A stretch of 64,000 nt of DNA, taken from contig CBDBLX010000002.1 of the NCBI GenBank assembly GCA_965207445.1, forward strand, positions 960,001 through 1,024,000. Reading direction: 5' to 3'. The notes under the pieces are model-generated. The model saw only the letters and a list, made by a program, of their open reading frames with translations, had not been told where the DNA came from and did not search any database. Position numbers and translations under genes: made by a program. This DNA comes from Nitrosopumilus sp. Lineage in GTDB: Archaea > Thermoproteota > Nitrososphaeria > Nitrososphaerales > Nitrosopumilaceae. Within the stretch, counting starts at the first letter, position 1; the number at the start of each line of letters is the position of its first letter. Below, piece after piece: positions 21,970 to 54,908 of this stretch.

Positions 21970-21996
21970 AAACCTCTATCATTTTCTTATGTTTTT

Positions 21997-25084: not shown

Positions 25085-28008
25085 GCCTCACTTATCTGTC
25101 TCTTTGCAGATTTAACATTCTCAATCCAGACACTTCTCCATTCACCATACTCGCCGTCATTATGTGCAGACACTGAAGGGCACCACCAGTTCTCCATGTA
25201 ATACCTTTTCGCCTGTTCCTCTGCCTCTTTCTTTTTCATTCCTTTGAACTCAATAACAAGGTGTACAGGCTTGTCATTTTTCTTCGTCTTTACACGCGCA
25301 ACAAAGTCCGGTTCTGTATCTCTCCACGTATTCTGTGATTTATCAAACCAGTGTATCTTAAAATCCAGTCTAAAGTTTCGTGTCCATGCTTCGACGCTGG
25401 GGTGGGTATCAAGTATCTTGGCAATTGATGCTTCCTCGCTGGAATGGCATGCGGCTCTGTTCAGCTCGGACTTTTTCAAGAATGTATTCTGGGTATTCAC
25501 TGCATCCATATCATCATACAGCGTGGAATTCTCACTGTTACCTATTTTCTTGTATGTGTGCTGCAATGTAGTCCTGAACCTGACTCCCTCTGTTGTCAAC
25601 AACCTGTCTCCAGATTGGTACTTGTCTGCAAATATGGGTCGGATGTTCACGACTTCATCATTATGGTCGCACGCCTCTGCAATCCTTTGCGGCACGTGCG
25701 GATCTGCCATGACTCCGGCGTGGTCATTGCATGTTATATTTGGATGATCAAGCCATTGTTTGACAATCCTACAAGAGTCGACAAATGAAATGTTTCTGCC
25801 TGTCATGATGTGCTGTCCGACATCGTGATCACGATCAGAATCATGATTTAGTAGTTCTGCTACTTGACGTGCTGTATTCCATATTGAAGTCTGTACTCGG
25901 CGCTCCCGTACTACTGTCATGCCGCTGCCAGCTGGGCCTTGGACTTCCGTTACTGTGGGTTCTGACTTTATTACATACGTCATGACTTTGTCTGGATTAA
26001 GCACAAAGCGTCGCCGCTTTCTCGGGTTTTGATACCCGATTACATTTGGAAATGATATGCGGAATTTTTCATTACCTGTCACTGAAAACACCATGTATGG
26101 TTGCGCGGGTGGTTGCAGCTTGACATCTCCTCCACGTGCAAATGTATATGGTACTCCGAACACGTTGGCGTACTCGGGCTTTTGTTTAGCAAATCCTACA
26201 AATGAAGTCCGTCTCAGGGCCCTGCCAGTAACCTGTTCACACAGCAATTGACTGCCAAATCTCCTGTATCCAAACACGTGGGTTACATTCTTGGCGTCCC
26301 ACCCTTCAGTCAGCATACCTACGGATATCACGCACCGTATGTGTCTGGCAGCCCCGCTTTGCCCTACTGATGTAAAGAGGCTTCGTATCTGTTCTTGTTT
26401 TTTGTCAAGTGATCCATCAAGTCCAAACAACGTGGCTTGTTCATCTACAATCTTCTTCTCAGAACCTGAAGTGGGGGCCTTTTCAAACAAGCGAGAGTGG
26501 ACAAGAAGAGTAGGAGGGAGATTCAGAGGATTACCGTCTTGGTCATAGTTTGAGAACATACTCAGGTGCCCGCGAGCTCCACGTTTGCCATCTGAATGGC
26601 GGCTTCCTGCGATCCATCTGTAGATGGCAGTTGCATTTTTAATGTTGTTTGCAACTATGATAAAGATCGGAATTATGCCGATCTCATCGTATGCAGGATT
26701 TACTTTATCATGATAGTGCTTGTACAACTGCTCAAGCGGCTCTTGCACCTGTACGGACAGGTTGGGGCCGAGCGGCTTGCCAGAATTATATTCATATATG
26801 TTTCTGTATTTTGGGTGATAACTGTCTACATCATCTTTGACCGGAACCCTGGGTATCTTCACAAGTCCCGACTCTATCGCGTCAAGCAGGGAAAAGTCCG
26901 AGACGGTCCATGGAAATACTACGGATTCCACATTTTTTGGCTTTGAAATCCACATCGGAGTGGCAGAAAAGTCATGGACATGCACCAGCCTGTCCTGCCC
27001 CTTTAGCAGCTTCAGAGCGTTGAACCAAAGAGCGGCTGCTTTCTGATATTCTGCATATTCTACATCATACTGTCTTTCCTCCTGCGGTTTGTAGCAGTGA
27101 TGTGCCTCGTCGTTAATTACGACGACCTTTGATTTTGGGTCGTGTTCGCGCAGGACACGGTTTATCATATCCGTCTCACTCTCCTTGGAGTTCTCGACAT
27201 TTGCTCTACCAAGCATCCTCTTTTCTCTTGTGCCCAGCGACTTGCCGTCCATGGTTGCAGTTCGTCTCTGAAAGACATGAAAATTCACGACCGTAACCTG
27301 GGCCCTACCAAGCACGCGGTGAAATTCCCTTGGTGTTATCGCATCCCATAACTCTGTTCCCTTTTTTGGATCCAGCACCTCAAGTCTCTTTCTGACTGTC
27401 AGGTTGGGGGCTATGACAAGAAAGTTTGTTATGCCGCTGTCATCACGGTGGATGTCATTTACAAGCATCCATAGCATTGTCATGGCCATCACATTGGTCT
27501 TGCCGGTTCCGGTCGCCATCTTAAATGCGGTTCTATATACGCCGTCATTATACGCGTCGTTGATTGACTTGAGGTTACGCGTCACTCTCTTGTGAAATGC
27601 CGGATCGTGCACCTGCCCTGCCTCAAAGAGCCAGATCATGGTTTCTACTGCTTCCATCTGGCACCAAAACGGGCGCATCCCGGCGCCCGGATCGCTTCTA
27701 TTCCAAAACTCTAAGAGTCTTCTGGTTCTGTATGTTGTTCCTTTCCAACCATTTTGTCTCCAGTGTACTAGAGCATCACGGAGTCCATTGATTGTCATGT
27801 GGGGTTCTATGCTAGTTGAATCCACTATTGTTTTATTGCCATCTTCATCAGGCATGCCTGATGATGCTTCACTTGGTCTGCGACCACTACATACCTCATT
27901 GGTAGATCGTCCCCTTGGATCTGTTACATAATATGTGGCAGGTTCCTCATATGGTTTATGTAGTATGGGAGATTCATTGAACATGCGCTTGGTATCACTT
28001 CCTTGCAT
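25072..28008 (-). CDS. type III-like restriction endonuclease/helicase subunit (Res, BPTD_3080-like)
   Basis: MATGTGKT Walker A, INDEAHH, SVGMLTEGWDA, EQVTGRALRR, C-terminal PDF...IEFKG nuclease motif. Confidence 0.92.
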   Translation of the reverse strand: MQGSDTKRMFNESPILHKPYEEPATYYVTDPRGRSTNEVCSGRRPSEASSGMPDEDGNKTIVDSTSIEPHMTINGLRDALVHWRQNGWKGTTYRTRRLLEFWNRSDPGAGMRPFWCQMEAVETMIWLFEAGQVHDPAFHKRVTRNLKSINDAYNDGVYRTAFKMATGTGKTNVMAMTMLWMLVNDIHRDDSGITNFLVIAPNLTVRKRLEVLDPKKGTELWDAITPREFHRVLGRAQVTVVNFHVFQRRTATMDGKSLGTREKRMLGRANVENSKESETDMINRVLREHDPKSKVVVINDEAHHCYKPQEERQYDVEYAEYQKAAALWFNALKLLKGQDRLVHVHDFSATPMWISKPKNVESVVFPWTVSDFSLLDAIESGLVKIPRVPVKDDVDSYHPKYRNIYEYNSGKPLGPNLSVQVQEPLEQLYKHYHDKVNPAYDEIGIIPIFIIVANNIKNATAIYRWIAGSRHSDGKRGARGHLSMFSNYDQDGNPLNLPPTLLVHSRLFEKAPTSGSEKKIVDEQATLFGLDGSLDKKQEQIRSLFTSVGQSGAARHIRCVISVGMLTEGWDAKNVTHVFGYRRFGSQLLCEQVTGRALRRTSFVGFAKQKPEYANVFGVPYTFARGGDVKLQPPAQPYMVFSVTGNEKFRISFPNVIGYQNPRKRRRFVLNPDKVMTYVIKSEPTVTEVQGPAGSGMTVVRERRVQTSIWNTARQVAELLNHDSDRDHDVGQHIMTGRNISFVDSCRIVKQWLDHPNITCNDHAGVMADPHVPQRIAEACDHNDEVVNIRPIFADKYQSGDRLLTTEGVRFRTTLQHTYKKIGNSENSTLYDDMDAVNTQNTFLKKSELNRAACHSSEEASIAKILDTHPSVEAWTRNFRLDFKIHWFDKSQNTWRDTEPDFVARVKTKKNDKPVHLVIEFKGMKKKEAEEQAKRYYMENWWCPSVSAHNDGEYGEWRSVWIENVKSAKRQISEACMI

Positions 28009-28222
28009 GTTGTTTGCGCTCTTTGGTTGGTAAAAACTTCAAGAGCTCTTCAAGAGACTCATCATAGTGTTTGATCCACTCTTTGGTGTACTCTACTGCT
28101 TTTCTTACATTCTCTATCCTGGCCTTTGACGGATCGTCCTTGGGTGCAATGTACAGAGACTTTGCCCCCGCCTGAAAGTAGAGGTACTTGGCTCCCCTTG
28201 ATCTCTTGGTTATCAGAGTCAT
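27995..28222 (-). CDS. small basic leader protein of type III operon (paralog of 44659-44901)
   Basis: 47/75 ungapped identity to 44659-44901; overlaps res start by 14 bp; TTAAAA box ~27-32 bp upstream. Confidence 0.85.
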   Translation of the reverse strand: MTLITKRSRGAKYLYFQAGAKSLYIAPKDDPSKARIENVRKAVEYTKEWIKHYDESLEELLKFLPTKERKQHARK

Positions 28223-28270
28223 GATGCTGGCTTATTATATGGTACTACTTTTAAGTGCTGTGTTTGCTGG

Positions 28271-29942
28271 GAGGTTGGTGCGTAATTGACATTAGGCCTG
28301 CCTGTGACCCTTCTGTGAGCTTGGTTTATTGCACATTCAATCTACAAAAGACTGAAATCTATCTATAGTGCGTTTCGTTTTTGAATATACGTGTGTGTTT
28401 TAGCAGACAGATTATAGAACATGAAACGTGCAAGTGTAATAGCAGTCACTATCATTCGTATGATGGAATTTTTTGCCCTTTTTCATGAGCGCAGATAAAT
28501 CTGTTTAGGACGTTGATATTCCATGCAATTGATAATATTTTACCAAACCGCTTTTGGTTTTTGGCCAGGCGCATACGACAGTGTAGCCTGTGATTCTTTG
28601 TCTCTTCTGCTCCAAATATTGCCTCGATAAGTGCGCGTTGTTTGTATGCATCTTGGTCAAAGATCTCTGCTGCTTTTTTTCTGCTTGGTTTGCCACGGTT
28701 TGTATGACCTGCGCCATCTGTGTGATTGCGCTGCTTTATGTTCGGTTTCATGTTTGCATTGAATATTGTCTCGCAATTTTGATCCGAGTCGTATCCCTTG
28801 TCTCCGTTGAATAAGCGTTCTTCAATCTGTGTATAGTTTTTTACGAGAAAGCTGACCATATATGGAAGCATTGACGTGTCACTCACATTGCTTGGAGTTG
28901 TGTATGATGCAAGTATGATCTGATGTCCTGTTATCGCAGTAATGTGATATTTTAGGTACGTCTTGATGCGTGTCGGCTCAAAATCTTGTAGTACATGATT
29001 AGGTCTTTCTTGTTTTTCGTACCTGTCAGTCTCTACCCCACTACTGTCTATCCCAATTGGAGCTGTAGGTTCTTGTTTTACGTCTTGTTTACCGCTCTCA
29101 AAATCCTCGGATCCGTGCGTAAGTATGGTCTCTTTACCTTTTATCGGTACCGGATCTGTCCCCGATTTTTTAAGTTCAGTTAGACACATGTTGGCAGTAT
29201 GTGCCAAAATAGAATCAAGCCAGTCGAGATCAATTGTTTGCATATGTTTTGTTACCCAACTATAATCAGGCTTCGGCTCGTCAACCCATTCATCATGCAT
29301 ATGTACAAGATCATTTATCACGTCACGAAAAGGAATATTTTTTGCAACTTTTAAAAGACACAAAAAATCCATCTTGTCACGCGAGTGTACAGGCTTGCAT
29401 CCTCTATTTGTCTTCTTTTCCTTGCACGGATGTGGATTTTTCCGTATCGCCGACAGCAAGGTCTTGCGCATAAAATCCGGCTCAGATTTGCGTGCCTGTT
29501 CGTAATACAGCCAATAACCTTCGCGTCGCTTGTGTTGCTCTGTCACTGTACGGTCTGCCTCCTTGATTTGTTCTTATTTGAAACCCACACACTAAATTTA
29601 CACAAACAACAAGCAGACGTCACATTCATCACAAACAATGCATTGTAATGGACATCATTCTGTGTAGCATAGTATGTTGTGGCAACCCACCATACGTCGT
29701 CGTCCCACCACACTTCACAAACGATACGTTGATAACATTGGCTAGTCAACGTTGTTTAGCATCCCCTTTGGTGACATTACAATTATTCATTTGGGATGCC
29801 CCTATAAGTAACTTTTGGTATGCGCGCATATACTTTTATATATGAGCTTATTAAATATATGTACATAAAACTCTGGCGATATTTGCAGATGGCTTTGCAA
29901 GTACGATGCAAGTGGCGATTTGATGAATTACGCACCAACCAC
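28271..29942 (-). mobile_element. IS5-like element copy A
   Basis: 17-bp TIRs GAGGTTGGTGCGTAATT / AATTACGCACCAACCAC; 9-bp TSD GTTTGCTGG. Confidence 0.92.
28452..29546 (-). CDS. DDE transposase (IS5-like), copy A
   Basis: PDYSW, IDSSG, YLKYH, GDKGYDS, YKQRALIEAIF motifs. Confidence 0.9.
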   Translation of the reverse strand: MTEQHKRREGYWLYYEQARKSEPDFMRKTLLSAIRKNPHPCKEKKTNRGCKPVHSRDKMDFLCLLKVAKNIPFRDVINDLVHMHDEWVDEPKPDYSWVTKHMQTIDLDWLDSILAHTANMCLTELKKSGTDPVPIKGKETILTHGSEDFESGKQDVKQEPTAPIGIDSSGVETDRYEKQERPNHVLQDFEPTRIKTYLKYHITAITGHQIILASYTTPSNVSDTSMLPYMVSFLVKNYTQIEERLFNGDKGYDSDQNCETIFNANMKPNIKQRNHTDGAGHTNRGKPSRKKAAEIFDQDAYKQRALIEAIFGAEETKNHRLHCRMRLAKNQKRFGKILSIAWNINVLNRFICAHEKGQKIPSYE

Positions 29943-29951
29943 GTTTGCTGG

Positions 29952-31367
29952 GAGGTTGGTGCGTAATTGACATTAACCTGCCTGTGACCCTTCTATGAAT
30001 TTACTCGGTTTATTGCACATTCAATCTGCAGAAGACTGAAATCTATCTATAGTGCGTTTTGTTTTTGAATATACATGTGTGTTGTTTTGACAGACATAGA
30101 TTATAGAACATGAAACGTGCAAGTGTGATAGCAGTCACTATCATTGATATGATGGAATCTTTTGCCCTTTTTCATGAGCGCAGATAAATCTGTTTAGGAC
30201 GTTGATATTCCATGCAATCGATAGTATTTTGCCAAACCGTTTTCTGTTTTTGGCCAGACGCATACGACAGTGTAGCCTATGATTCTTTGTCTCTTCTACT
30301 GCTCCAAATATTGCCTCGATAAGTGCGCGTTGTTTGTATGCATCTTTGTCAAAGATCTCCTCTGCCTTTTTTCTGCTTGGTGGTTTACCACGGTTTGTAT
30401 GACCTGCGCCATCTGTGTGATTGCGCTGCTTTATGTTCAGTTTCATGTTTGCATTGAATATTGTCTCACAGTTTTGATCCGAATGTATCTCTTGTCTCCG
30501 TTGAATAAGCACTCTTCAATCTGTGTATAGTTTTTTACGAGAAAGTTGACCATATATGGAAGCATTGATGTGTCACTCACATTGCTTGGAGTTGTGTATT
30601 ATGCAAGTATGATCTGGTGTCCGTTTATCGAGTAATATGATATTTTAGGTACATCTTGACGCGTGTCGGTTAAGTCTTGTAGTAAATGATTAGGTCTTTG
30701 TTGTTTTTCGTACATGTCAGTCTCTATACCCCACTACTGTCTATCCAAATCGGAACTGTAGGTTCTTTTTTTACGTCCTGTTTACTGCCCTTAAAATCCT
30801 CGGATCTGTGCGTAAGTATGGGCTCTTTACCTTTTATCGGTGTCGGATCTGTCCCAGATTTTCCAAGTTCATTTAGACACATATTGACAGTATATGCCAA
30901 AATAGAATCAAGCCAGTCGAGATCAATTGTTTGCATATGTTCGGTTACCCAAATAATCAGGCTCCAGCTCGTCAACCCATTCATCATGCATATGTCCAAG
31001 ATCATTTACCACGTCACGAAAAGGAATATTTTTTGCAACTTTTAGAAGACACAAAAAATCCATCTTGTCACGCGAGTGTACAGGTTTGCATCCGCCTCTA
31101 TTTGTCTTCTTTTCCTTGCGCGGATGTGGGTTTTTTCGTATCGTCGACAGCAAGGTCTTGCGCATAAAATCCTGCTCAGATTTGTGTGCCTGTTTGTAAT
31201 ACAGCCAGTAACCTTTGCGTCGCTTGTGTTGCTCTGTCATTGTACGGTCTGCCTCCTTGTTCTGTTCTTATTTGAAACCCATACACTAAATTTACACAAA
31301 CAACAAGCAGGCGCCACGATCATCACAAACCATGCATTGTAATGGGCGTCATTCTCGGTGTAGCATA
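29952..31367 (-). pseudogene. degenerate IS5-like element copy B, frameshifted transposase, one end replaced at the IS630 insertion
   Basis: Starts with the same TIR; fragments 30141-30512, 30724-31005, 30923-31240 align to copy A. Confidence 0.88.
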
Positions 31368-33028
31368 GTGATTTCATTAAAGATCCGATGGTTTTTACAA
31401 GCGATTTCGGCTAGGCAGGCGGGTACGGAGTGAAAAAATAGACGTAATTGGCACTATGTGTAGCAGATACCGTGTGGTGGCCAGAAGAGCGACGAGGAAT
31501 TGGTGTGTATATCCAGTGGCAGGTATTGGGTAATTTTTGATCATTTGGTTGAATTAATTTGACCTCGAGTGTCAAAAGGCGATGTGGCCATTAGTGTTTA
31601 ATGAATCACAACAAAATGGTACATCGACTAGTACTCGCTGATGCCATATTTAACGACTCTGCAGGCAGATCGTCTTGCGGCATCGACGAGGTGCGTATTT
31701 TTTGAAGACAGCCTATGTAGAAAGAGGGGACGGGTTCATGCCCGACGTGTCCCTGGAAGATCTAAAAGCCGCCTACCGCAAAGAGCCTCCGGGCAAGTCC
31801 CGGGATAGACTGCAGGCAGCAGTTGGGTGAAAAAAGGGCAAGAGTGAGTCTGCAATAGCCGCCCAGCTCGGACGCAGCCAGAGCGTCATATCCGAGTGGC
31901 TCAACAGGCTACAATCAGAGGGCCTGGAGGGCAGGTATGACCGCAAGAGCCCCGGCAGGCCGTGCAGACTCACAAAAGAACAACAAGAACAGGCAAAGGC
32001 CGATCTGAGCAAGGAACCGATGCAGTGCGGCTTTGAGCGTGCATGGACTGCCGCCTTGTTTGCATTGCATCTGGTAAACATTTTTGACGTCCAGTACACG
32101 TGGACCGGAGCCCTGGCGCTAGCTCACAGATGGGCTTTTCAATAAGAATGCCCAAGGCCAATCCACCACAAGTCTGCCAGTCCATTAGAAGAACTGCATT
32201 ATGTACACGACACAATACGCGCCATCATGGCGCACGCCCGCGCCGGCTATGAGATGTTCTGCATGGATGCCGCTGCAATCACAAACTCGCCGTATGTCGC
32301 GCGCGGACTACATCTCCGAGGAGGCTCTGAGACTGTAAAGGTCAACTTTTCAAAAATGAGCATGAAAATGCTGGGTGCACTCGGGGCCGACACGTGCCAC
32401 CTGCACTTTTGCGACAGTGCGAATACTGTAAACGTCATAAAACTGTTGGAGATGCTCCGAGAAAAGTACGGCAAGGTATTTGTCATATGTGACAATGCAT
32501 CTGCGCACAAGTCCAAAGACATCAAGCAGTATCTGGAACAGACAAGAGGACAAGTTGCACTATGGTACTTGCCGCCATACACGCCTCAGCACAATCCCAT
32601 AGAGATCCAATGGCGCGAGATAAAGCGCGCACTAGCAGGCAGATACTACAAAGGTGGTTTTCCAGAGATTCAAAAGTCCATACTACACATGATGGAAAAA
32701 GGCGAGGTGGGTACAGTCAGGCTGCTAGAGTACATGCGCAATGCCATACAGGACGCAAAGAACAACGCGCCAATACCAGAACTCCGGGCTGCATGAACTA
32801 CATATTACGCGAACTAGGAGGTCCGGGTGAGGCTGTGCGACGCACAGATCGCACTATGATCAGGACGGTTGCGCACATACCCTTTGCCACGCCTGAATAC
32901 ACGGCTGGCATGGCCATGTCCATGGAAAAATCATGGATCCGGTGTGAATTACCTCACAGGTCCTGCTTGATTTCCTAATATATGATTACAAGAATGTCTA
33001 AAAACTATCGGAACTTTAATGAAACCAC
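31368..33028 (+). mobile_element. IS630-family element
   Basis: TIRs GTGATTTCATTAAAGATCCGATGGTTTTTA / TAAAAACTATCGGAACTTTAATGAAACCAC, flanked by TA on both sides. Confidence 0.85.
31738..32796 (+). pseudogene. IS630 transposase; HTH region with in-frame stop and frameshift, DDE region 32227-32796 open
   Basis: IAAQLGRSQSVISEW HTH, SPGRPCRL; DNASAHKS, YLPPYTPQHNPIEIQW. Confidence 0.85.
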
Positions 33029-33030
33029 TA

Positions 33031-33222
33031 TGGCCTACGGTTAGCTTGTTGAGATTGTGATATCTGCATTCAAGAGAAAGATGGAGAATATCTACCAAGA
33101 GATCAAATTAAAGATCCGCACCTATAACACAATGTTGCAAATTGGCAAGGAGGTGAAATCATAATTCTAACAACAACATAAACATAAACAACTATTTGCG
33201 CGTATAATTACGCACCAGATGC
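33031..33222 (+). pseudogene. C-terminal remnant and right end of an IS5-family element
   Basis: Translates as AYG*LVEIVISAFKRKMENIYQEIKLKIRTYN; followed by TIR-like AATTACGCACCA. Confidence 0.6.
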
Positions 33223-33569
33223 AAATAGCGTCCTAGTGCCGGATCAACATGTTTGATTTTTGAAGGTGTAAGGCTTCAAATCCGGTCATTGTGGCTTGCG
33301 CTCTTACACGTGTCACTGAAAGCCTGCCGAGTCATATTGCAACGGTGTCGTCCTACAGGATACGTATCGAATTGTACAACACGCTAATTTATTGTGATTA
33401 ATTACAATAGATGTTTCTTGTTTGTGATGTGGCAGTAAAATAACGTGACTGTACTGTCAATTAATGTAAGGCGCCATACACAGAATAATACTAATAACAA
33501 TAATTGGTCATACCATTGTATCGTACACCTATTATAGTATTATCAAGTATTTTTTAATATTCAAACCAA

Positions 33570-33863: not shown

Positions 33864-34075
33864 GTTAAATATTATATGTGCTTCTTTATTATTGTACCTA
33901 AAATCAAATTTATTATGATTATATAATTAAAAGTCTGTAAATATTATGATATATGTAGTTGATAACTTTGATTCTTGTTATGTAACTTGTGATGGAATTT
34001 TCTATTGCAAATATTATTAAATCAAAAAATAATACACTAGTGTTTTGTAAAAAATATGCAATATTTGTTAATTCT

Positions 34076-34453: not shown

Positions 34454-34623
34454 TATATTTACAATATTTAGGACTCATATAAGCTATCGTGCTTTTACTC
34501 AATATTCGTTTTGATATTTAACTGAATATATAATATATTCTATAGTTTTGCTATATGATATGAAAATTTGGTTGTAACATATGTATTGTTAATTTAATGT
34601 CATTTTAATTTATAGTATGAATA

Positions 34624-36297
34624 GAGGTTGGTGCGTAATTGACATTTGGCCTGCCTGTGACCCGTCTGTGAACTTGGTTTATTGCACATTCAATCTACAA
34701 AAGACTGGAATCTATCTATAGTGCGTTTCGTTTTTGAATATGCATGTGTGTTTTGGCAGACATGGATTATAGAATATGAAACGTGCAAGTGTGATAGCAG
34801 TCACTATCATTGGTATGATGGAATTTTTTGCCCTTTTTCATGAGCGCAGATAAATCTGTTCAGGACGTTGATATTCCATGCAATTGATAGTATTTTACCA
34901 AATCGCTTTCTGTTTTTGGCCAGACGCATACGACAGTGCAGCCTGTGATTCTTTGTCTCTTCTGCTCCAAATATTGCCTCGATAAGTGCGCGTTGTTTGT
35001 ATGCATCTTGGTCAAAGATCTCTGCTGCCTTTTTTCTGCTTGGTTTGCCACGGTTTGTATGACCTGCGCCATCTGTGTGATTGCGTTGCTTTATGTTTGG
35101 TTTCATGTTTGCATTGAATATTGTCTCGCAATTTTGATCCGAGTCGTATCCCTTGTCTCCGTTGAATAAGCGTTCTTCAATCTGTGTATAGTTTTTTGTG
35201 AGAAAGCTGACCATATATGGAAGCATTGACGTGTCACTCACATTGCTTGGAGTTGTGTATGATGCAAGTATGATCTGGTGTCCTGTTATCGCAGTAATGT
35301 GATATTTTAGGTACATCTTGATGCGTGTAGGCTCAAAGTCTTGTAGTACATGATTAGGTCTTTCTTGTTTTTCGTACCTGTCAGTCTCTACCCCACTACT
35401 GTCTATCCCAATTGGAGCTGTAGGTTCTTGTTTTACGTCTTGTTTACCGCTCTCAAAATCCTCGGATCCGTGCGTAAGTATGGTCTCTTTACCTTTTATC
35501 GGTACCGGATCTGTCCCCGATTTTTTAAGTTCAGTTAGACACATATTGGCAGTATATGCCAAAATAGAATCAAGCCAGTCGAGATCAATTGTTTGCATAT
35601 GTTTGGTTACCCAACTATAATCAGGCTTCGGCTCGTCAACCCATTCATCATGCATATGTCCAAGCTCATTTACCACGTCACGAAAAGGAATATTTTTTGC
35701 AACTTTTAAAAGACACAAAAAATCCATCTTGTCACGAGAATGTACCGGCTTGCATCCTCTATTTGTTTTCTTTTCCTTGCACGGATGTGGGTTTTTTCGT
35801 ATCGCCGACAGCAAGGTCTTGCGCATAAAATCCGGCTCAGATTTGCGTGCCTGTTCGTAATACTGCCAATAACCTTCGCGTCGCTTGTGCTGCTCTGTCA
35901 CTATACGGTCTGCCTCCATAATCTGTTCTTATTTGAGACCCGCCCACTAAATTTACACAAACAACAAGCAGGCGCCACATTCATCACAAACCATGCATTG
36001 TAATGGGCGACATTCTGTGTAGTATAGCATGTTGTGGTAACCCACCATATGTCGTCGTTCCACCACACTTCACAAACGATACGTTGATAACATTGGCTAG
36101 TCAACGTTGTTTAGCATCCCCTTTGTTATTATCACAATTATTCAATTGGGATGCCCCTATAAGTAACTTTTGGTATGCGCGCATATACTTTTATATATGA
36201 GCTTATTAAATATATATACATAAAACTCTGGCGATATTTGCAGATGGCTTTGCAAGTACGATGCAGGTGGCGATTTGATGAATTACGCACCAACCAC
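34624..36297 (-). mobile_element. IS5-like element copy C
   Basis: Same TIRs; 9-bp TSD GTATGAATA. Confidence 0.95.
34807..35919 (-). CDS. DDE transposase (IS5-like), copy C
   Basis: Intact 370 aa; same translation as copy D. Confidence 0.92.
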   Translation of the reverse strand: MEADRIVTEQHKRREGYWQYYEQARKSEPDFMRKTLLSAIRKNPHPCKEKKTNRGCKPVHSRDKMDFLCLLKVAKNIPFRDVVNELGHMHDEWVDEPKPDYSWVTKHMQTIDLDWLDSILAYTANMCLTELKKSGTDPVPIKGKETILTHGSEDFESGKQDVKQEPTAPIGIDSSGVETDRYEKQERPNHVLQDFEPTRIKMYLKYHITAITGHQIILASYTTPSNVSDTSMLPYMVSFLTKNYTQIEERLFNGDKGYDSDQNCETIFNANMKPNIKQRNHTDGAGHTNRGKPSRKKAAEIFDQDAYKQRALIEAIFGAEETKNHRLHCRMRLAKNRKRFGKILSIAWNINVLNRFICAHEKGQKIPSYQ

Positions 36298-36340
36298 GTA
36301 TGAATATGAGATTAATAACGCTTAATGTGTTATCTAAAGT

Positions 36341-36550
36341 GTGATACTCTCAGTATTTATCATATTAATCGGTCTTACTATGTTTGTGTCTGGTTTGGTG
36401 GTGTTTTACTCTATTGAGATGGGGCAGTTTGAGCCTGTATCTAGATTTATCAAAAATACTGGAATATTCATTGGGTTAACTGGGATAGGAGCAGTTATGG
36501 TTGGTATACTTTTGTTATTAATAGACAAAAGTGAGCCGATCAAAGACTAG
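36341..36550 (+). CDS. small two-TM membrane protein
   Basis: Two hydrophobic helices. Confidence 0.6.
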   Translation: MILSVFIILIGLTMFVSGLVVFYSIEMGQFEPVSRFIKNTGIFIGLTGIGAVMVGILLLLIDKSEPIKD

Positions 36551-36622
36551 TATTATTTGGTAAAATATAGTTTGATCAATATTGTCACAACTATTAATTG
36601 TATAATCTATGGTATTGATAAC

Positions 36623-37096
36623 ATGGATGCTAACAAAGCATGGCTTGGCGCATTATACCTCAAAGATGAGGGTGGATATGATATTGTTCTAAAAGCACTA
36701 GAACACTATAAAAGACGATTAAAAACTATAGGAAAAAGTCCAGAATTGCAAGGTGCTGCTGCAATGTTTTCTGTCGTATTACGCCAACAGGCAGTCAAAA
36801 TAATCCCAGAGATTGATGTAGTATGTGACAAAATATGTAATAGCTTGGCTTGTAATGATTATACTCTAGTCAGTAAGATTGTAGATGATATGCCACTTGT
36901 CAAAAAAGCGCTTTTATGTTACAAATCAGATATACAAAAAGCTCGTGATACAAAACATGAATATTTTATAAAACTGATACATCATCACAATGACAAAAAA
37001 TCATCTACAGAGGATTCACAATCATCAGAAACAACATCTGATACACTGGACATGATTGAATCTGCAATACTTAAACTTGATGCATCTGAGACATGA
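36623..37096 (+). CDS. hypothetical protein
   Basis: Open frame from MDANKAWLGALYLKDEGGY. Confidence 0.7.
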   Translation: MDANKAWLGALYLKDEGGYDIVLKALEHYKRRLKTIGKSPELQGAAAMFSVVLRQQAVKIIPEIDVVCDKICNSLACNDYTLVSKIVDDMPLVKKALLCYKSDIQKARDTKHEYFIKLIHHHNDKKSSTEDSQSSETTSDTLDMIESAILKLDASET

Positions 37097-37108
37097 TTAT
37101 AATATTCG

Positions 37109-37348
37109 TTAACGTGCACTGATTCCTTGCAGATACCAATCCACATACGGCTTTAGTGCAGCGCACTTTATTCTTCGCTCTTGTTCGTCGTTCTCACCTT
37201 CAATGGCGTCTATCTTTTTTTGCAGATACAAAGATGTGTGCTTGCTCTTTAAAAAGGGACGTATGTGATTTAACACCATCACTATATCTTTTGTCGATAC
37301 GTGCTCAAAGTCGTTGCTTATACGTTTGGCATCCATCTCTAGTGTCAC
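37109..37348 (-). CDS. hypothetical protein
   Basis: 79-aa ORF, LKPYVDWYLQG C-terminus. Confidence 0.6.
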   Translation of the reverse strand: MTLEMDAKRISNDFEHVSTKDIVMVLNHIRPFLKSKHTSLYLQKKIDAIEGENDEQERRIKCAALKPYVDWYLQGISAR

Positions 37349-37397
37349 ATGTCAAATCGGCTTGCACTCTTTATTATTTCTTGCATTGTGTTGATAT

Positions 37398-37478
37398 GTA
37401 ACCGTTTAACTCCTGTGTCTGTTTTAGACGTTAGATGATGAATCTGTGCCTAAATTTGGGAAGAGGTTGAACGGTTAC
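37398..37478. mobile_element. ~80-bp MITE with IS66-type TIRs (copy 2)
   Basis: GTAACCGTTTAAC...GGTTGAACGGTTAC; flanked by near-perfect 9-bp repeat TGTTGATAT/TGTTAATAT. Confidence 0.82.
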
Positions 37479-37755
37479 TGTTAATATGATATACACATGA
37501 AAAATTTTCTACCAATTTTTTACTAAAAATAATCACAATAAAATAATTTATCTATACAGTTATCATAAACGTAGTGTTTCAAATAAAGAATAAAAAATTC
37601 CATAGACAAACATCAATGGCTCAGGAACAATAAATGAAGATAAAAACCGAAAAATTTTGGTTCATTGTTTTAATTACTAGTAGCTTGTTCTAGTCGAATA
37701 ATGTTTATACTCTAATATCTGACTATCTTACAGATCTTAGACTGGTGAACTTGAA

Positions 37756-38244
37756 ATGAATACTGATTTTACAAAATTTAAAGACAAATTATTTAAAATT
37801 CGACAACTTGCATACAACACATACGATATCCAACATCCTATGATCAAAGGACAGTTGCGCATAATTGCCGTTCCTGGGAATTTTGTTCAAATGGCTAGGG
37901 CAAATACTGAGGATGGTATTCCTCAGATTGGCGTAGGGACGCAAAATGTTATAGGATTTAGCAACATGGGCAAGAAACTAAAACCGATCAACTCTAATAT
38001 ATCGCCAGATCAACTCTCTTCTACTGACAAAGAAGATATTACAAGATATGTTGAGAATGAACACGAACCTTGGAACGAATTCTTACTAGAGGATAACCTA
38101 CTAGTAAGACTAAAAACTGTATTGACCAAAGTCACGTGGGTGAAACCATCTGTCAACATTCAAGGAGACCCGCTTCTTTGGGTTCGTACTAGTATCAATG
38201 TGGACGTATCTAAATCTAAAATTGGTGAATCTGGACTGGTATAA
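37756..38244 (+). CDS. hypothetical protein
   Basis: 162-aa ORF; EPWNEFLLED..LVRLK motif. Confidence 0.7.
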   Translation: MNTDFTKFKDKLFKIRQLAYNTYDIQHPMIKGQLRIIAVPGNFVQMARANTEDGIPQIGVGTQNVIGFSNMGKKLKPINSNISPDQLSSTDKEDITRYVENEHEPWNEFLLEDNLLVRLKTVLTKVTWVKPSVNIQGDPLLWVRTSINVDVSKSKIGESGLV

Positions 38245-38313
38245 AAGACACGTGTATGACATTTACAATAATCATTATTTACACGACAATAACGAGTACA
38301 TCAGACACCAACA

Positions 38314-38553
38314 TTAATCCTCTTGTAATGTTGCATCGTCATTACTCCATGTAACTCGAAACTTACCTGTGACTCGTAGTACATCCACTGTACCTCCTTT
38401 TTTGAATATTAGGCGGTATGGCTTGTGTGATGTGTCTTCAATGTCAAGGGGCACATCGTCTGTTCTTGCTCGAAATTTGACTGGATCATTTGAGACTTGC
38501 TCCCACTGTGCAGAGTCAAAATCCATGTATAGTTTGGTGTACAACAATCCCAT
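38314..38553 (-). CDS. hypothetical protein
   Basis: MGLLYTKLYMDF...GKFRVTWSNDD; start uncertain. Confidence 0.6.
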   Translation of the reverse strand: MGLLYTKLYMDFDSAQWEQVSNDPVKFRARTDDVPLDIEDTSHKPYRLIFKKGGTVDVLRVTGKFRVTWSNDDATLQED

Positions 38554-38902
38554 GATGTGTCGTATGTGCACCTGTATAAATAATGAGTTGATAGGCACGT
38601 CATTGCAAATTTAATTAATATATAATTATATGGATATATTAATAAAGTTTTTATCTAGTGATATATATGACAAAATAAATGGATATTTTTCTCAAAAAAT
38701 TACACAGAAACTCACTATTATTTTTTTTAATTTGTCTATTCAAATGAATTTACCAAATATCGAGTTTTATAAAATGTTCATTGTTGATTAGATATTATCT
38801 TTGGGGTCTATATTACAATCTGTGATTTCGTTGTGAATATTATTACTCATTTGAATTTTTGCTCAAATAAATTAAATTTTATTTATATAATTATTTTATT
38901 TT

Positions 38903-38977
38903 ATAACCATTCAACTCACATACCTACGTCATACGTTAGGCGGTGAATCCGTACATAAATTTGGTAAGGGGTTTTAA
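38903..38977. mobile_element. degenerate IS66-type MITE (copy 3)
   Basis: ATAACCATTCAACTC...ACGTTAGGCGGTGAATCCGTACATAAATTTGGTAAGGGGTT resembles copy 2. Confidence 0.55.
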
Positions 38978-39025
38978 TTTTTTTATTGTAAAATAAGATT
39001 AACGTGAAAATGAAATATGTGTATA

Positions 39026-41218
39026 TCATTCTTTGTCGATAAACTCATTTGCTTGTGGTGGATTCGGTGACAGTCCTTTGCGCTTTCTGATATCACTTAT
39101 TGCAGATTCTAAAAGCGACTTTGGAACCTCACTCCATTCTTTAAATGATGTATTCCATGTTGCCCTACCTGCTGTCTGACCTCTCATCTCTTCTGATAGT
39201 GTAAATGTCTCTGATGCCGGTATCTCGCCTGTGACTATACTTGATGCGCCCATTTGTGACATGTCCAAAACCTTGCCGCGTTTACCTGACAGTACTGTTG
39301 CTACATTCCCAACTAAATCCGTAGGTACGCGGACCTCTATTGCAAGCATGGGCTCTAGTACTATTGTCCCTGCAGTTAACAGCGCTCCCATACATGCCCT
39401 TCTTGATGCCGGACCTAGTTGTGACAGTCCCCGATGGGCAGTATCTTCGTGTGGAACAAAATGTGTAAATGTAAATTTACAATCCCTCATCTGCTCACGA
39501 CATAATGGACCTTCTTTCATAACCTCTTCAAATCCAGAGTTGATAGAGTCTGTAGACTCTTGGACAAACTGTACACCTTTGGTCCCATTTATCATTACAT
39601 TTCCGCGTGAGTCAAGACGCATAATTCTCTTGATCGTATCTGTATCCCACCCTGCACCCTTTAGCAGATCTGAGACTGTCTTTTTATCCTTCATATCACT
39701 GATCTCACCTGTTCTGAGCATATTTGCAATCTCTGGTTCTAGTGGTTCTACTTTCATGAATATCTTGTTGTGTCTGTTCGGTGACTTTGCCATTACGGGC
39801 TCACACGTTGAGCGTACAGTCTCCCTATAGTTTATCAGAGGCTCTGATGTTATTATCTCTAGTTTTGCATCTTGTATTCTATGGGTTGCAACATCTAAAT
39901 GCAACACCCCCATACCTGCCACAATAGTCTCTCCACTCTCTTCATCTATCTTTACTACTAAATTCGGATCTTCTATAGTTAGTTGTTTTAGCACTTCAAC
40001 TAACTTTGGCAAGTCTTTTGGGTGCTTTGGCTCTATTGCAACTTGAACCACTGGTTCTGATACGTACTTTACCCCTTCAAAAACTGGCATGTCTTTTATC
40101 ATTGATATTGTGTTTCCTGCCCTTGCATCTGTCAGTCCTAGTAGCGCAGGTATATTACCTGCTCCTAGTTCTCCTACTTGCTCACGTTGATTTCCCATGA
40201 AAAAGTTTACAGATTGAATGCGTCCTTGGCGCTTTTCATCAATTATGTGTATTGTTTGCCCATCACGAACGGTACCTGAAAATAGTCTTCCAATGGCAAC
40301 AGGACCTGCAGCGGGATCAAGTACCATGTTGACGATCATCATTATGGTGGGTCCTTCATCACTACACTCTAAAAGAGCTTTTCCTACATCAGAGTCCAAG
40401 TCACCTTTCCATATCTGTGGTATACGATACTTTACTGCCTCGTGCGGTGCCGGATGGTGTTTAACTACCATTCCCAATACTGCATCTGCAAGCGGCGCTT
40501 TTTCAACTAACTCTGCTACTTTTTCACCTTCGTATGCATCTATTACATCTTTGAATGTTATTCCGCGCTCTTTCATCATATCAATGTTAATTGCCCATCG
40601 ATCTTTTGCAGAACCAAACGTCACACTAGCGTCTTGAATTGAGACCTTCCATTTGTCACGATACTCTGCTTCTGCATATGTGTCGATCAATCGATTAAAG
40701 TTTGACACTACATCAGCTAACTGTTGTTGCATCTTTTCAGGTGTAAGTCGAAGTTCTTTTATCAAACGGTCTACTTTATTTATGAACAGTACTGGTCGCA
40801 CTCTCTCCTCTAATGCCATGCGTGTTACAGTCTCTGTTTGAGTCATTATGCCCTCAACAGCGTCACACACTACAACTGCACCATCAATTGCTCTTAGACT
40901 CCTGATCACTCTACCACTAAAATCAACATGACCTGGTGTGTCGATCATATTTATGACGTATTCTTTGCCCCCTTGTGAAAAATGTAGTGTGACGTTTGCT
41001 TGATATATGGTAATTCCCCTTTGCTGTTCTTCTTTATCAAAGTCCATTGCAAGTGCCTTACCTGCTGCTGAAGGTGCAATAATCCCAGAGTATGCCAACA
41101 GACTGTCACTCATCGTAGTCTTGCCATGATCCACATGTGCAATAACTCCAAAGTTGCGTATTTGGTCCTTGTTTTTGATGATCTTCAAAACCTCGCCTGT
41201 TGACTTGAATTTTACCAT
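39026..41218 (-). CDS. fusA: translation elongation factor EF-2
   Basis: AHVDHGKTT, RGITI, DTPGHVDF, NKVD, HEDTAHRG diphthamide loop. Confidence 0.98.
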   Translation of the reverse strand: MVKFKSTGEVLKIIKNKDQIRNFGVIAHVDHGKTTMSDSLLAYSGIIAPSAAGKALAMDFDKEEQQRGITIYQANVTLHFSQGGKEYVINMIDTPGHVDFSGRVIRSLRAIDGAVVVCDAVEGIMTQTETVTRMALEERVRPVLFINKVDRLIKELRLTPEKMQQQLADVVSNFNRLIDTYAEAEYRDKWKVSIQDASVTFGSAKDRWAINIDMMKERGITFKDVIDAYEGEKVAELVEKAPLADAVLGMVVKHHPAPHEAVKYRIPQIWKGDLDSDVGKALLECSDEGPTIMMIVNMVLDPAAGPVAIGRLFSGTVRDGQTIHIIDEKRQGRIQSVNFFMGNQREQVGELGAGNIPALLGLTDARAGNTISMIKDMPVFEGVKYVSEPVVQVAIEPKHPKDLPKLVEVLKQLTIEDPNLVVKIDEESGETIVAGMGVLHLDVATHRIQDAKLEIITSEPLINYRETVRSTCEPVMAKSPNRHNKIFMKVEPLEPEIANMLRTGEISDMKDKKTVSDLLKGAGWDTDTIKRIMRLDSRGNVMINGTKGVQFVQESTDSINSGFEEVMKEGPLCREQMRDCKFTFTHFVPHEDTAHRGLSQLGPASRRACMGALLTAGTIVLEPMLAIEVRVPTDLVGNVATVLSGKRGKVLDMSQMGASSIVTGEIPASETFTLSEEMRGQTAGRATWNTSFKEWSEVPKSLLESAISDIRKRKGLSPNPPQANEFIDKE

Positions 41219-41352
41219 GTTGGCAACGCTCAAATTTTAGCTTTTAAATCTTGGCTTGTTTAATCAATTGATTATATAAAAAACAAAATCCAATTTTTCT
41301 GATTTTGATACAATCCACTGATTTTTATTACAATTGATGAATTTTCATATCA

Positions 41353-42195
41353 ATGCAAATAACTGTGGGACATACACCTGATGCTGATGATGCGTTTATG
41401 TTTTATGGTATGCTATCTGGAAAAATTCCATCACCTGGATTTGAGATTGCACATGTGGTAGAGGATATAGAAGCACTCAACTGCAAGGCACTGTCCCCTA
41501 GTCTTGATGTGACTGCAGTGTCTGCGCATGCGTGCGCATTTATACCTGGATATACGATACTTCGAAGTGGTGGGAGTTTTGGATTAGGGTATGGTCCAAT
41601 AGTCACTACTAAAATGGAAAATAGTCAGATAAGCATTAATGATCTAAGTGATGCTACCATTGCCATACCTGGAAAGATGACGTCGGCATTTTTGTTACTG
41701 CAGCTTGTCATTGGTAAATTTAAATATGTAGAGATGAACTTTGCACAGATACCTGATGCTGTGCGTTTGGGCAAGGTGGATGCTGGGCTAGTAATTCATG
41801 AGACACAGCTCTCATACACTAATGAAGGAATTGCAAAGATTTTTGATGTGGGACGATGGTGGCATGATACTACTGGCGGTCTTCCTGTTCCATTGGGTGT
41901 TAATGTGATTAAAAGCGACCTTGGGGAACAAACAATTACAAAGTTTGATAGATATTTGCGAGATTCTATACAGTATGGTCTTGATAATGATAATGATGCT
42001 ATTGACTATGCAATGAAATATGCTAGAGGAAAACCAAAGGACATGATAAACAAATTTGTTCACATGTATGTTAACAAGTCAACTGTAAACATGGGTGATG
42101 CAGGTGAAAAAGCTATAAACTTGATGTTTAATATGGCGTCTCAGCGTAACCTATTGGAAAAACCATTTGTTGCAAAGATTGCTCCAAAACTTTGA
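41353..42195 (+). CDS. mqnD: MqnA/MqnD family menaquinone biosynthesis protein, 1,4-dihydroxy-6-naphthoate synthase-like
   Basis: GHTPDADDAFMF, DIEALN, GLGYGP, PGKMTSA, GLVIHE, LPVPLG, MYVN. Confidence 0.85.
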   Translation: MQITVGHTPDADDAFMFYGMLSGKIPSPGFEIAHVVEDIEALNCKALSPSLDVTAVSAHACAFIPGYTILRSGGSFGLGYGPIVTTKMENSQISINDLSDATIAIPGKMTSAFLLLQLVIGKFKYVEMNFAQIPDAVRLGKVDAGLVIHETQLSYTNEGIAKIFDVGRWWHDTTGGLPVPLGVNVIKSDLGEQTITKFDRYLRDSIQYGLDNDNDAIDYAMKYARGKPKDMINKFVHMYVNKSTVNMGDAGEKAINLMFNMASQRNLLEKPFVAKIAPKL

Positions 42196-42375
42196 TTAAA
42201 TTTTATAATTATTTAAAATGATTATACTCTATAATAAAGTGTTACTATAATGTATGATCATTTATATGAATTGATAGGTTAAATGATGAGTGTTGCTTGT
42301 GGGTTGTTGCTTGTGGGTTGTTGGTGTATGATAAACTTGCATGATTTCACATCTAAAAAATTTGTGTGAATCAAG

Positions 42376-44271
42376 GTGTGAACCAACCTATTTTGGCATA
42401 ATAACAAGATCATATATTTTTAAGATGTATCATCAGACGGTGGGCCAATGATTTTACACAACTCCTCCCAGACATTTAGTCCACGCAGCTTCCACGTCTC
42501 AACACAACTAAATATTACACAGAGATTTTCTGCTCCCTTGTCACTCTTCAACTGTAGATGATTGTTCCTCTGACCTATTACAGGTTTCATTGACTGTTCT
42601 CCAAGATTTGTGGTATAGTAGACAAATGGATACAAAACAAATGTAAAAAGTTCGGGCGCTGCATTTTTTAGTGTGGTGCCAAACTTTTTCATTATCTCAT
42701 ATCTGCTTTTTTTGTATCTAGATATTATACCACACAACCATTTTTGAAGTTTTGTAACATATGAACGCCTACTCTTTAAAGAGCGGTCGCCACGAGTCCA
42801 TTTGCGCAACGCGATAAATTTTTTGTTCAACTCATTGTACAGATTGGTAGCAGATTCAAGTTCACTACGATTTGAAATAGTTCTACTCTCCCGCACAATG
42901 TGTTGTGTGTAGCGCTGTTTTATGTGATTTGAGAATACAGTACCATACCCGCGATATCCATCTCGACTTATTGCACCAATACAGTTTTCGGCCTGTACTA
43001 TGAGATCTGTTGCACTACGATTCTGAGAGTGCATACTGATATGATTAAAGATCCGATATTTTGATTGATATTCATCTCGAAGTTGAGTACATATTATGAA
43101 TACAAAATATTAGAAAACTATCGGATCTTTAATGAAACTATTATGCATGTACGCTACAGTGTCATCGTTTCTAACTGCCATTATCCATCTTTTGGGCTCA
43201 CCTTTGTATTCGGTCTCATCCATGATTACTGACTGTGATTTTTCTAATTCTGCCATGAAACCATCTCTTATGGGTTTTAGCATTGCAGTTTGACGGTCGT
43301 ATATATTACGAATTGTCGTATCAGAAACGTCTAGTTTGTACAGATTCTTTAAATCTTCTGAAACCATTTTAGGAGTCTTTCTGTGCGTGGATTGATATGT
43401 TACATAGCGAATTACAGAGTAATCGAACTGACCGTTTGGTGGAAGGTTATTTTTAGCTTGAAATTTTGCACCACAGTCAAGACAATTGTACTGGGCAGTT
43501 TTGTGTAGCGTTACAGTGTGAGGAACAAATTCATGTATAGAAACTATTGTCCGTTTTTATCCTTGTGGAGGTCTTGTATGTTGTTTTTACCACCACTCTG
43601 GGCAACATGTAGCAGCATGTCTCTTTTTTTCTGTTGCTTTGAATATGTGAGTACCACCATTATGCCCTAAAACACCACTTCGTTTGTTGGGTTTAGCCTT
43701 GTCTGTCTTTGCACCATTAGTGTTGTTTTTGTTTTGTGCAGATGTTTTTGATTTATTATTTTTTGATTTATTATTTTTTGATTTATTTGGATGTATGGCG
43801 CCCTGCTTTGATGATGGTGTATGGGCATTCTCATAATAGTTGAGCTTTGCCTCATAATTTTGTATGGTTGTATCTTTTTTTTTGACTTTGTTTTTTTATA
43901 GCAGTGTTATTCTTTTCTAGGTTTAAGTTATCTTCTTCTAATGTATTGACACGGCGCTTTAATGTATTTATAATATGATCTTTTTTCTTTAGCTCTTTAT
44001 ACTTACTATCTATTTTTGTTCAAGTTGCTGAATTTTCTTTTCATATTTTATTTTTAATTGAATATATACATAATCTGCTTTGTCTGATCTTTTTTGACTC
44101 ATGGTGTTGGTAAAAACCTTTGATCATATATGTGTATTTATTATTTCCAATGATTTAGATAGATTGATTTAAATATGAAAAATATCATAGTAAACCTAAA
44201 AATCTAAATTATTTTATTTATTCATATTCAAATTTTAAATGAATATATCAATCAGGGAGGTTGGTTCACAC
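42376..44271 (-). mobile_element. degenerate IS66-like element (family 2, copy 1); transposase pseudogene 42420-44102 interrupted by MITE
   Basis: 14-bp perfect TIR GTGTGAACCAACCT / AGGTTGGTTCACAC; MDETEY, SRDGY, TTNLGEQSMK motifs; frameshifts. Confidence 0.85.
43034..43143. mobile_element. 110-bp IS630-type MITE (copy 2) inside IS66-like transposase
   Basis: Absent from homologous site at ~54597-54605; flanked by TGCA on both sides. Confidence 0.9.
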
Positions 44272-44620
44272 GATATATTTAGTCCGAGATCGTCGAATCG
44301 TTTTCGTAAAACTTTATAATTTACTTGTCCTAACTCATATTGATGTTTTAGTACCTCATTTTTCATATAATACCAGAGATACTAGAATATTCCCATATAT
44401 TACACTTTCTATTTGATCTGATCAAATATGATCGTCAACGTTCAACGACATTGCGGATTATTCAAACAAAATCATATAAAACACATTGCGAACTAATGAC
44501 ATAGGCACACTCGTATCGTTCATGAGCGTGCTGGTCTGAGGTGGGAAGGGGTTGAATGGTTACGTATTATGCGATAATGTGGTATATATGGATATCGTAA
44601 TAATGTATAACATCCCAATC

Positions 44621-44644
44621 TTTAAAAACAGTGTCATCTGACAC
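44621..44644 (+). promoter_or_regulatory. putative TATA box and adjacent palindrome upstream of leader gene
   Basis: TTTAAAAA (44621-44628) then GTGTCA-TC-TGACAC (44631-44644), 14 bp before ATG. Confidence 0.5.
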
Positions 44645-44658
44645 GATAACACTACATC

Positions 44659-44901
44659 ATGACATTGAGTATCAAGATTGCAAGGGGCAAAGAATACCTG
44701 TACTTTCAGGCTGGCAAGGAGTCACTGTATATCTGCCCCAAGGACAACCCTTCAAAAGCAAAGATGGAGAACTTGACTAGGGCGCTTGAGCACACCAAGG
44801 AGAGGATGAATCACTATGCTACGTCGTACGAAGAACTTCTCCAGTTACTACCGCCCAAAGAGCGCAAACAGTATGCCACAAAATGGGTTGTGTCATCATG
44901 A
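44659..44901 (+). CDS. small basic leader protein of helicase/IIG operon (paralog of 27995-28222)
   Basis: 47/75 identity to 27995-28222; stop overlaps helicase ATG (ATGA at 44898-44901). Confidence 0.85.
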   Translation: MTLSIKIARGKEYLYFQAGKESLYICPKDNPSKAKMENLTRALEHTKERMNHYATSYEELLQLLPPKERKQYATKWVVSS

Positions 44902-54859: not shown

Positions 54860-54908
54860 CTGAGTGAGCGGAGCCATACTTTACATCTATTATATTATAA
54901 ATTGTAAT

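Follow-up and report, generated by a model that had tools for sequence, protein, structure and literature searches.

How does one and the same small gene come to head two unrelated restriction operons? The question is raised by a 64,000-nucleotide stretch of a Nitrosopumilus sp. genome (assembly GCA_965207445.1, contig CBDBLX010000002.1, forward-strand positions 960,001 to 1,024,000; hereafter the window), in which a first-pass annotation had singled out two related open reading frames (ORFs), here called copy A and copy B (Table 1), either as a regulator common to different defence systems or as the fixed anchor of a mobile platform that exchanges its cargo. The two proteins indeed align without gaps, with 47/75 residues identical (E 6e-34), and each gene heads a restriction operon: the genes behind copy A are a type III res-mod pair, and those behind copy B encode a PLD-SNF2 helicase and a type IIG enzyme. 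The anchor proposal fared best in our comparison with copies from other genomes, since the platform turned out to be an integrative element with a tyrosine recombinase, and in 33/45 outside copies the small gene lies head-to-head with this integrase. The small gene is thus probably the integrase's fixed neighbour in thaumarchaeal integrative elements, and its product probably a dimeric DNA-binding repressor of the divergent promoter, built without a helix-turn-helix (HTH).

In total, we mapped 49 copies of the small gene, 45 of them from other genomes. A duplicate (L084, of L006), a partial second hit (L065) and a weak partial hit (L063) had been dropped before this count; L064 gave no hit and has no row in it, and L011 was one false hit of the metagenome scan. 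Because several loci are near-duplicates (L008/L010, L082/L085, L084/L090, L068/L069, L006/L072 and L007/L009), locus counts overstate independence. By its named relatives the family belongs to Nitrosopumilaceae, where 28/400 genomes searched contain it, and 23/25 outside matches of a class-wide draw fell within Nitrosopumilaceae. This genome carries four full copies and a fifth, a stub cut after nine codons. Of the two full copies outside the window, one leads a type I locus and the other a locus with NucS, IIG and PLD-SNF2 genes. The stub is head-to-head with the only intact integrase copy found in this genome, within a 3.3-kb element that carries a serpin and at whose borders 15 bp of the tRNA-Met 3' end are repeated. 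Searches of Pfam, NCBIfam and PADLOC with the window proteins returned no family, and Pfam and PHROGs searches over 55 members revealed no common one, no family matching more than 2/55. We found no publication on the small gene in open-licence PubMed Central (PMC) or bioRxiv; some hypothetical genes listed in published tables of elements may belong to the family. The family is an undescribed candidate regulator and operator set within a known class of element.

The conserved feature of these loci is the neighbouring integrase. The head-to-head partner in the 33 outside loci was a 410-470 aa gene of one tyrosine-recombinase family, or its remnant, with the integrase 5' part within 250 bp in 31 loci and a 3' remnant in 2. 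Six further copies were divergent to an operon with a HerA/VirB4-like ATPase, which ended in the same integrase family (2), in another integrase family (3) or at the contig end (1). Altogether, a tyrosine integrase was present in the element of 38/45 outside copies, in addition to the one intact copy in this genome. The integrase family is missed by Pfam and only weakly matched by NCBIfam XerA (E 0.003-0.009); its R..K..YxxR..H..Y catalytic residues, presumably the motifs of tyrosine recombinases, are invariant or nearly so. A tRNA 3' end adjoined the integrase end in 18/32 loci, and in 5 of these 18 an exact 12-15 bp repeat of the tRNA end lay 7-12 kb away, beyond the cargo, in the DNA fetched. 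Repeats of this attachment (att) type also occur at two sites of this genome, tRNA-Met and tRNA-Arg; a 19-bp near-repeat of tRNA-Val 10 kb away was located within coding sequence and was not counted. Since the integrase is whole, on the opposite strand to the small gene and followed by att beyond its 3' end, we rejected a reading of the small gene as the N-terminal part of an SSV-type, split integrase.

The short form of the element is probably a deletion derivative of the operon form. In the latter (L101:9910-11888, L102:5128-7121, L141, L142, L143) a JAB-ThiF fusion, a Zn-finger gene, a small membrane gene and the HerA/VirB4-like ATPase precede the integrase, that is, a ubiquitin-like module within a possible transfer operon. 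At G000 C2 2373607-2385100 (L014, L002) the tRNA-Arg 3' end is repeated twice downstream (44 and 22 bp) among integrase fragments, a tandem array of decayed elements.

Between the start codons of integrase and small gene lie 60-110 bp. In the subfamily of the window, this interval holds three 21-bp palindromes with the consensus GTTATCGTATAATACGATAAC: box 1 separates the integrase start from its TATA, box 2 the first TATA from the second, and box 3 the second TATA from the small gene. In a second subfamily, two boxes of other sequence surround one TATA, and the palindrome sequence changes between small-protein subfamilies. The AT-rich boxes reported upstream of the window copies were recovered (TTAAAA at copy A, TTTAAAAA at copy B; Table 1); they are predicted TATA boxes and occupy the TATA position of relatives. 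Paired palindromes beat dinucleotide shuffles at p<=0.05 in 29/49 regions when their length was fixed and in 34/49 when it was variable. Furthermore, when 4,976,026 positions were scored with a promoter matrix built from 30 boxes of 11 outside loci, the top four were promoters of contig C2, copy B included, at 41, 33, 30 and 29 bits, with the next at 8.6. Box 3 is retained in all five promoters of this genome.

The boxes appear to belong to the small protein rather than to the integrase. The trees of the two proteins are incongruent, and where a swap of partners is informative, the box type stays with the small protein: the small proteins of L082 and L087 are sisters and their boxes are the same, with integrases in different supported clades, whereas L079 and L006/L072 have sister integrases with different small-protein clades and boxes. 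Likewise, L067 has boxes of the window type and an integrase of an unrelated family, 6-7 kb away. Box distance also follows the sheet of the small protein more than its helix (partial r 0.28, p 0.015, versus 0.11, p 0.12). The same integrase family is far commoner than the small gene (71/300 genomes), and in 21/21 further loci examined the small gene was not found within 1.5 kb of it. Because the slot then often holds genes that look like winged-HTH, ribbon-helix-helix (RHH) or AbrB regulators, the position beside the integrase is likely a regulator slot.

We next turn to the predicted structure of the small protein. Two AlphaFold models of copy B (pLDDT 90-92) contain three antiparallel strands, a long 27-residue helix and a short helix. 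Neither model contains an HTH and neither window protein has a Pfam match, in agreement with the first-pass annotation. The same annotation had proposed a three-stranded pattern of DNA-binding type, reminiscent of integrase arm-binding domains; the sheet is present in both models, and any kinship is weak and uncertain (Z 2.5-3.9). The arm-type matches were 3jtz (Z 2.9-3.9, root-mean-square deviation (rmsd) 4.5, 50 aligned), 3ju0 (Z 2.7, rmsd 4.8, 50 aligned) and lambda 1kjk (Z 2.5, rmsd 3.6, 44 aligned); arm-type and AP2 domains together scored Z 2.3-3.9 (rmsd 3.6-6.1, 44-50 aligned) among unrelated rows, and for this reason we regard kinship to either as uncertain. Foldseek against PDB and BFVD gave nothing at E<=0.001 and the VIA structural search nothing at Z>=5, which does not show that the fold is new. 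The best PDB profile match (E 0.013) was unrelated, and the ESM Atlas gave best scores below 0.9, DUF6788 (0.83) and DUF1678 (0.82) being leads only. As modelled, the basic and aromatic strand residues, together with the long helix, would fit a β-sheet that reads DNA and is carried by a helix that dimerises. Many distant members carry C-terminal extensions or fusions of 200-500 aa, possible sensor or effector domains (P0036, P0048, P0082, P0085, P0090, P0093; L067:4094-5080, L071:516-2012, L077:4294-5268).

The sequences show an element that reads outwards from its promoter: on one side the integrase towards a tRNA or gene end, on the other the small gene towards variable cargo, with two or three palindromes flanking the TATAs in between. 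In the mechanism that we propose, one dimer may bind each palindrome, contacting DNA through its β-sheets. Since boxes 1 and 3 cover the predicted transcription starts, binding would repress both the integrase-side transcript and the small gene's own, and repression of both promoters would keep the element integrated. On entry into a cell without the small protein, both promoters would fire until the protein accumulates. This fits PMC8371274, according to which control begins at transcription and the archaeal integrases characterised so far work without a directionality factor. In the window, transcription of the coupled restriction operons probably still starts from what remains of the promoter, and the small proteins may have become accidental governors of their cargo, similar to the controller (C) proteins of restriction-modification (RM) systems. 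In addition, they may act in trans on the single intact integrase, whose own small gene ends after nine codons.

A bolder version of this proposal is tentative. According to it, the family would be an undescribed archaeal transcription factor that uses a β-sheet, not an HTH or RHH, in a lambda-like divergent switch; its subfamilies would be orthogonal protein-operator pairs, so that several elements coexist per genome; after loss of the integrase it would have been domesticated as an archaeal counterpart of C proteins, without HTH, for restriction systems of types I, IIG and III; and a kink-turn-like (k-turn-like) hairpin over the integrase start would add a second, translational lock. Concerning this hairpin, the integrase family has an additional, internal start (ATG/GTG, 'MG'), which follows a TATA-like motif of its own by about 25 nt and is seen at L012:12321-12361 (G000 C2 about 642320-642360) and at 40 other starts. 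The leader reads TGA-hairpin-GA-T immediately 5' of the start codon, like C/D-box k-turn strands (PMC5539422); its stems are 5-11 bp, and across 18 short leaders 99% of the cells are paired and one pair is compensatory. Rfam had no match for the hairpin, and eight integrase loci gave tRNAs, or matches overlapping them, only. This leader may be under translational control by L7Ae.

Several observations weigh against a repressor switch of integrative origin in the window and in the family. In the 100 kb around the window no tyrosine integrase profile reached E<=1, there is no tRNA in or near it, and its direct repeats are insertion sequence (IS) copies only, so that no att repeat is present; the descent of the window copies from integrative elements is therefore read from the common promoter. 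Six outside copies had no integrase in the DNA fetched. Neither window copy alone passed the de novo palindrome test (p 0.74-0.85), the flexible version was failed by 15/49 regions, and at least two passing regions (L062, L094) chose palindromes other than the expected pair. The spacing rule of the promoter matrix was picked with this genome's spacing already known. Partial Mantel correlations with the boxes, obtained with hand-set box positions and non-independent kin, were 0.40 (p 0.0005) for the small protein and 0.36 (p 0.007) for the integrase and do not separate the two candidates, and boxes could track an adjacent gene through physical linkage alone. The types of the genes in the regulator slot were judged by eye and from Pfam hits that were all under the curated cut-offs.

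The state of the window itself raises the alternative that survives best, namely that its two copies are inert remnants in IS-bracketed blocks. The first IS end lies 48 bp upstream of the copy A ATG, in the place of boxes 1-2 and the integrase in relatives; its 17-mer terminal repeat has about 50 occurrences in the genome, and a 17-bp match between the regions upstream of copy A and of another copy was an IS end and not an integrase remnant. At copy B, the IS end that reaches into box 1 has 182 genome matches at <=2 mismatches, and similarity to the paralogous promoter begins directly behind it. System B is probably broken in this allele, because the IIG gene is split by an IS66-type element. 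Block B (42376-54889, 12.5 kb) represents an insertion, as five genomes of the same genus have the counterpart of the gene at 55962 no more than 0.4-2.4 kb behind mqnD; it shows no target duplication, and on the right it does not finish at an IS end. In three runs of one sample, which may be the source sample, contigs pass directly from 42375 to 54890 and skip block B. Its depth is about half that of its flanks and that of block A is also below its flanks, contig depth being a rough guide only. On the basis of depth and of the skipping contigs, both blocks look like accessory, IS-bracketed leftovers in part of the population; a joint of block A (21346-33327), seen in one contig only and with 26 bases inside repeats, was not relied on.

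Inert remnants would explain why the integrase is gone, copy A lacks two boxes and system B is split. However, all four full copies keep open frames though their integrases are absent or broken, and all five promoters keep box 3, so we give this alternative a minority share only. It covers the window copies and is compatible with the repressor mechanism at the level of the family.

Some details of gene coupling in the window depend on the start codons chosen. Translational coupling of each copy to its cargo had been proposed, and overlaps do exist, yet they vary with the start picked: Res may begin at 28008, with a 14-bp overlap with copy A, or at 27984, leaving a 10-bp gap, and the Res family model alignment begins at residue 12; the helicase may begin at 44883 or at 44898, the latter giving an ATGA overlap with copy B. 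Similarity between the copies had also been said to stop at the ATG of the cargo. This did not hold at copy B, where the ATG directly after AAAGAGCGCAAACA (44875) matches neither helicase start. An Rfam search of the window returned nothing.

Elsewhere in the window, an IS at 34615-36297, whose joint is ambiguous by 9 bp, is missing from that sample's contigs and represents a polymorphic insertion. A 998-aa ORF without Pfam match (58874-61870) was not found in the stretches of five syntenic relatives, and short repeats at 1336-1429, 5964-6100 and 37381-37493, with about 65-75 matches elsewhere in the genome, are possibly miniature inverted-repeat transposable elements.

Table 1. Small-gene copies, promoter elements, cargo and insertion sequences in the window.
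Feature	Position	Strand	Remarks
Small gene, copy A	27995..28222	-	75 aa; predicted three-stranded sheet and long helix (fold from copy B models)
Box 3 palindrome, copy A	28226..28246	-	Sole remaining box; 10.7 bits; between TATA and ATG
TATA-like box, copy A	28249..28254	-	
IS cluster upstream of copy A	28271..33394		17-mer terminal repeat, repeat cover, DDE transposases
Cargo A, Res, type III restriction subunit	25072..28008	-	NCBIfam restr_BPTD_3080 E 1e-205, under curated cut-off
Cargo A, Mod, type III methyltransferase	22541..25084	-	PADLOC E 1e-137
Cargo A, 183-aa ORF	21997..22548	-	No family match
IS66-like copy, left bracket of block B	42376..43406		94-95% identical to 53943-54859
IS end invading left arm of box 1, copy B	44547..44563	+	Position of relatives' integrase start codon
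Box 1 palindrome, copy B	44558..44578	+	10.8 bits; first 6 bases from IS end
Box 2 palindrome, copy B	44591..44611	+	6.1 bits; between two TATA-like boxes
TATA-like box, copy B	44621..44628	+	
Box 3 palindrome, copy B	44630..44650	+	12.3 bits; between TATA and ATG
Small gene, copy B	44659..44901	+	80 aa
Cargo B, PLD-SNF2 helicase	44883..48137	+	Start 44883 or 44898
Cargo B, type IIG restriction endonuclease-methyltransferase, first part	48119..50209	+	
IS66-type element inside IIG gene	50205..52338		Repeat cover, duplicated target TTTGTCGC
Cargo B, type IIG restriction endonuclease-methyltransferase, second part	52339..53931	+	
IS66-like copy, right bracket of block B	53943..54859		

The arrangement of the boxes bears on a further alternative, that the small protein binds them mainly as an activator or two-state switch in the manner of a C protein or of lambda cI/Cro, with the integrase side or the cargo on at low occupancy and repressed at high occupancy. 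Boxes 1 and 3 are placed between TATA and start codon, which is the usual site of an archaeal repressor, and the two-box subfamily has only such TATA-to-start boxes, on either side of one common TATA. Both points argue for repression and make a predominantly activating role unlikely, even if box 2, between both TATA-like boxes, could help TBP/TFB to bind and C.PvuII has one activating and one repressing operator (PMC2647307).

Less probable still is a role as an Xis-like recombination directionality factor (RDF) or integrase cofactor, in which the boxes would be bound by the integrase or serve recombination. A small basic protein beside an integrase would fit such a role, as would the weak structural likeness to the arm-type domains 3jtz, 3ju0 and 1kjk and the fact that the boxes also correlate with integrase distance. 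However, the boxes are found about 1.3-1.5 kb from att, at the promoter. An RDF would have its sites by the att core; the only recurrent sites found were at the promoter, one integrase length from att, though the protein may have others. Moreover, the small gene pairs with two unrelated integrase families, in places 4-7 kb away, the same integrase family goes without it in the 21/21 loci described above, and the two trees are incongruent. Finally, characterised archaeal integrases require no RDF according to PMC8371274.

The cargo of the family bears on the other proposal of the first-pass annotation, a non-HTH regulator common to defence systems. Within about 10 kb, 26/33 integrase-linked loci carry type I, IIG/ISP, III or IV restriction, Dnd, BREX/DISARM-like or other PADLOC-listed genes; the remainder consists of one toxin-antitoxin-like pair, two loci with surface/protease genes and four that are IS-filled, unknown or cut short. 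The defence enrichment is real. Coupling of the small gene to its cargo is not a family trait: a same-strand downstream gene within 30 bp was present in 10/46 copies, four of these from this genome, whereas the first downstream gene was on the opposite strand in 17/46. We consider it very improbable that the small protein is a dedicated controller or binding partner of defence systems, because opposite-strand cargo includes RM genes (L010, L082, L085, L087) and the cargo proteins are mutually unrelated and in part non-defence (subtilase and serpin; an Ig-like surface protein), even with all four full copies of this genome close to same-strand cargo, defence genes in most integrase-linked loci and a copy-A arrangement that recurs in another genus (L076). 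Control of defence genes thus ranks second to control of the integrase.

Regarding individual cargo loci, the integrase-less copies at L075, L080 and L094 have DnaJ-like genes nearby and stand in front of Pel-type polysaccharide, PKD-domain or PolB genes, with palindrome-like repeats by eye at L080 and L094. Cargo that matches the PADLOC candidate system PDC-M33, with an SspD-like domain, lies beside DndB at L003:10615-14979, L057:6559-10917 and L004.

What sets the timing of integration and excision in archaeal elements that have no directionality factor is an open question in PMC8371274, and these data provide a concrete candidate switch for a major family of marine nitrifiers, with a named protein, exact predicted operator sequences and naturally swapped pairs. 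The integrative-element platform explains the arrival of unrelated restriction systems at the same kind of site, and the window shows a possible route from mobile-element switch to restriction controller. Should the predicted binding be true, the β-sheet reader and its operator variants would be new parts for archaeal gene control.

Among known systems, the arm-type integrase domains (HPI 3jtz, HAI7 3ju0, lambda 1kjk) and AP2 domains share with the small protein three antiparallel strands followed by a helix, and its first ~50 residues align with them weakly. In contrast to these domains, the small protein stands alone, has a much longer helix and has promoter palindromes as its predicted sites; the Z scores are those given above, with no sequence match.

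C proteins are HTH proteins, whereas the small protein has no HTH in model or Pfam. Repeated palindromes precede its own start, as in C proteins, a likeness seen in sequence only. Like the gene of C.PvuII (PMC2647307), the window copies are small leader genes co-oriented with a restriction gene and have palindromes, the predicted operators, upstream. The small gene differs in that its conserved partner is the integrase and in that coupling to restriction genes is not family-wide. We infer that the small protein works in a C-protein-like manner in the window, without being a C protein by fold or conserved context.

The elements of the family are members of the class of thaumarchaeal cryptic integrated elements (Krupovic et al. 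2019, PMC6563490), in which, according to that paper, a tyrosine integrase targets the 3' ends of tRNAs or genes, the att repeats are short, the size is <20 kb, the cargo includes restriction-modification genes, and there is no signature gene except the integrase. The window copies differ from them in having no integrase or att. The words 'excisionase' and 'directionality' are absent from its main text, as are 'excisionase', 'arm-type' and 'AP2' from four supplementary files, and a head-to-head small gene with palindromes was not met in the portions of the paper that we compared. Finally, a parallel in action is F55 of SSV1, which PMC8371274 presents as an element-encoded protein that lowers integrase expression via promoter sites, as the small protein is predicted to do. 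The small protein has no sequence or family match (Pfam, PHROGs), and its elements, unlike SSV1, carry no recognised viral genes.

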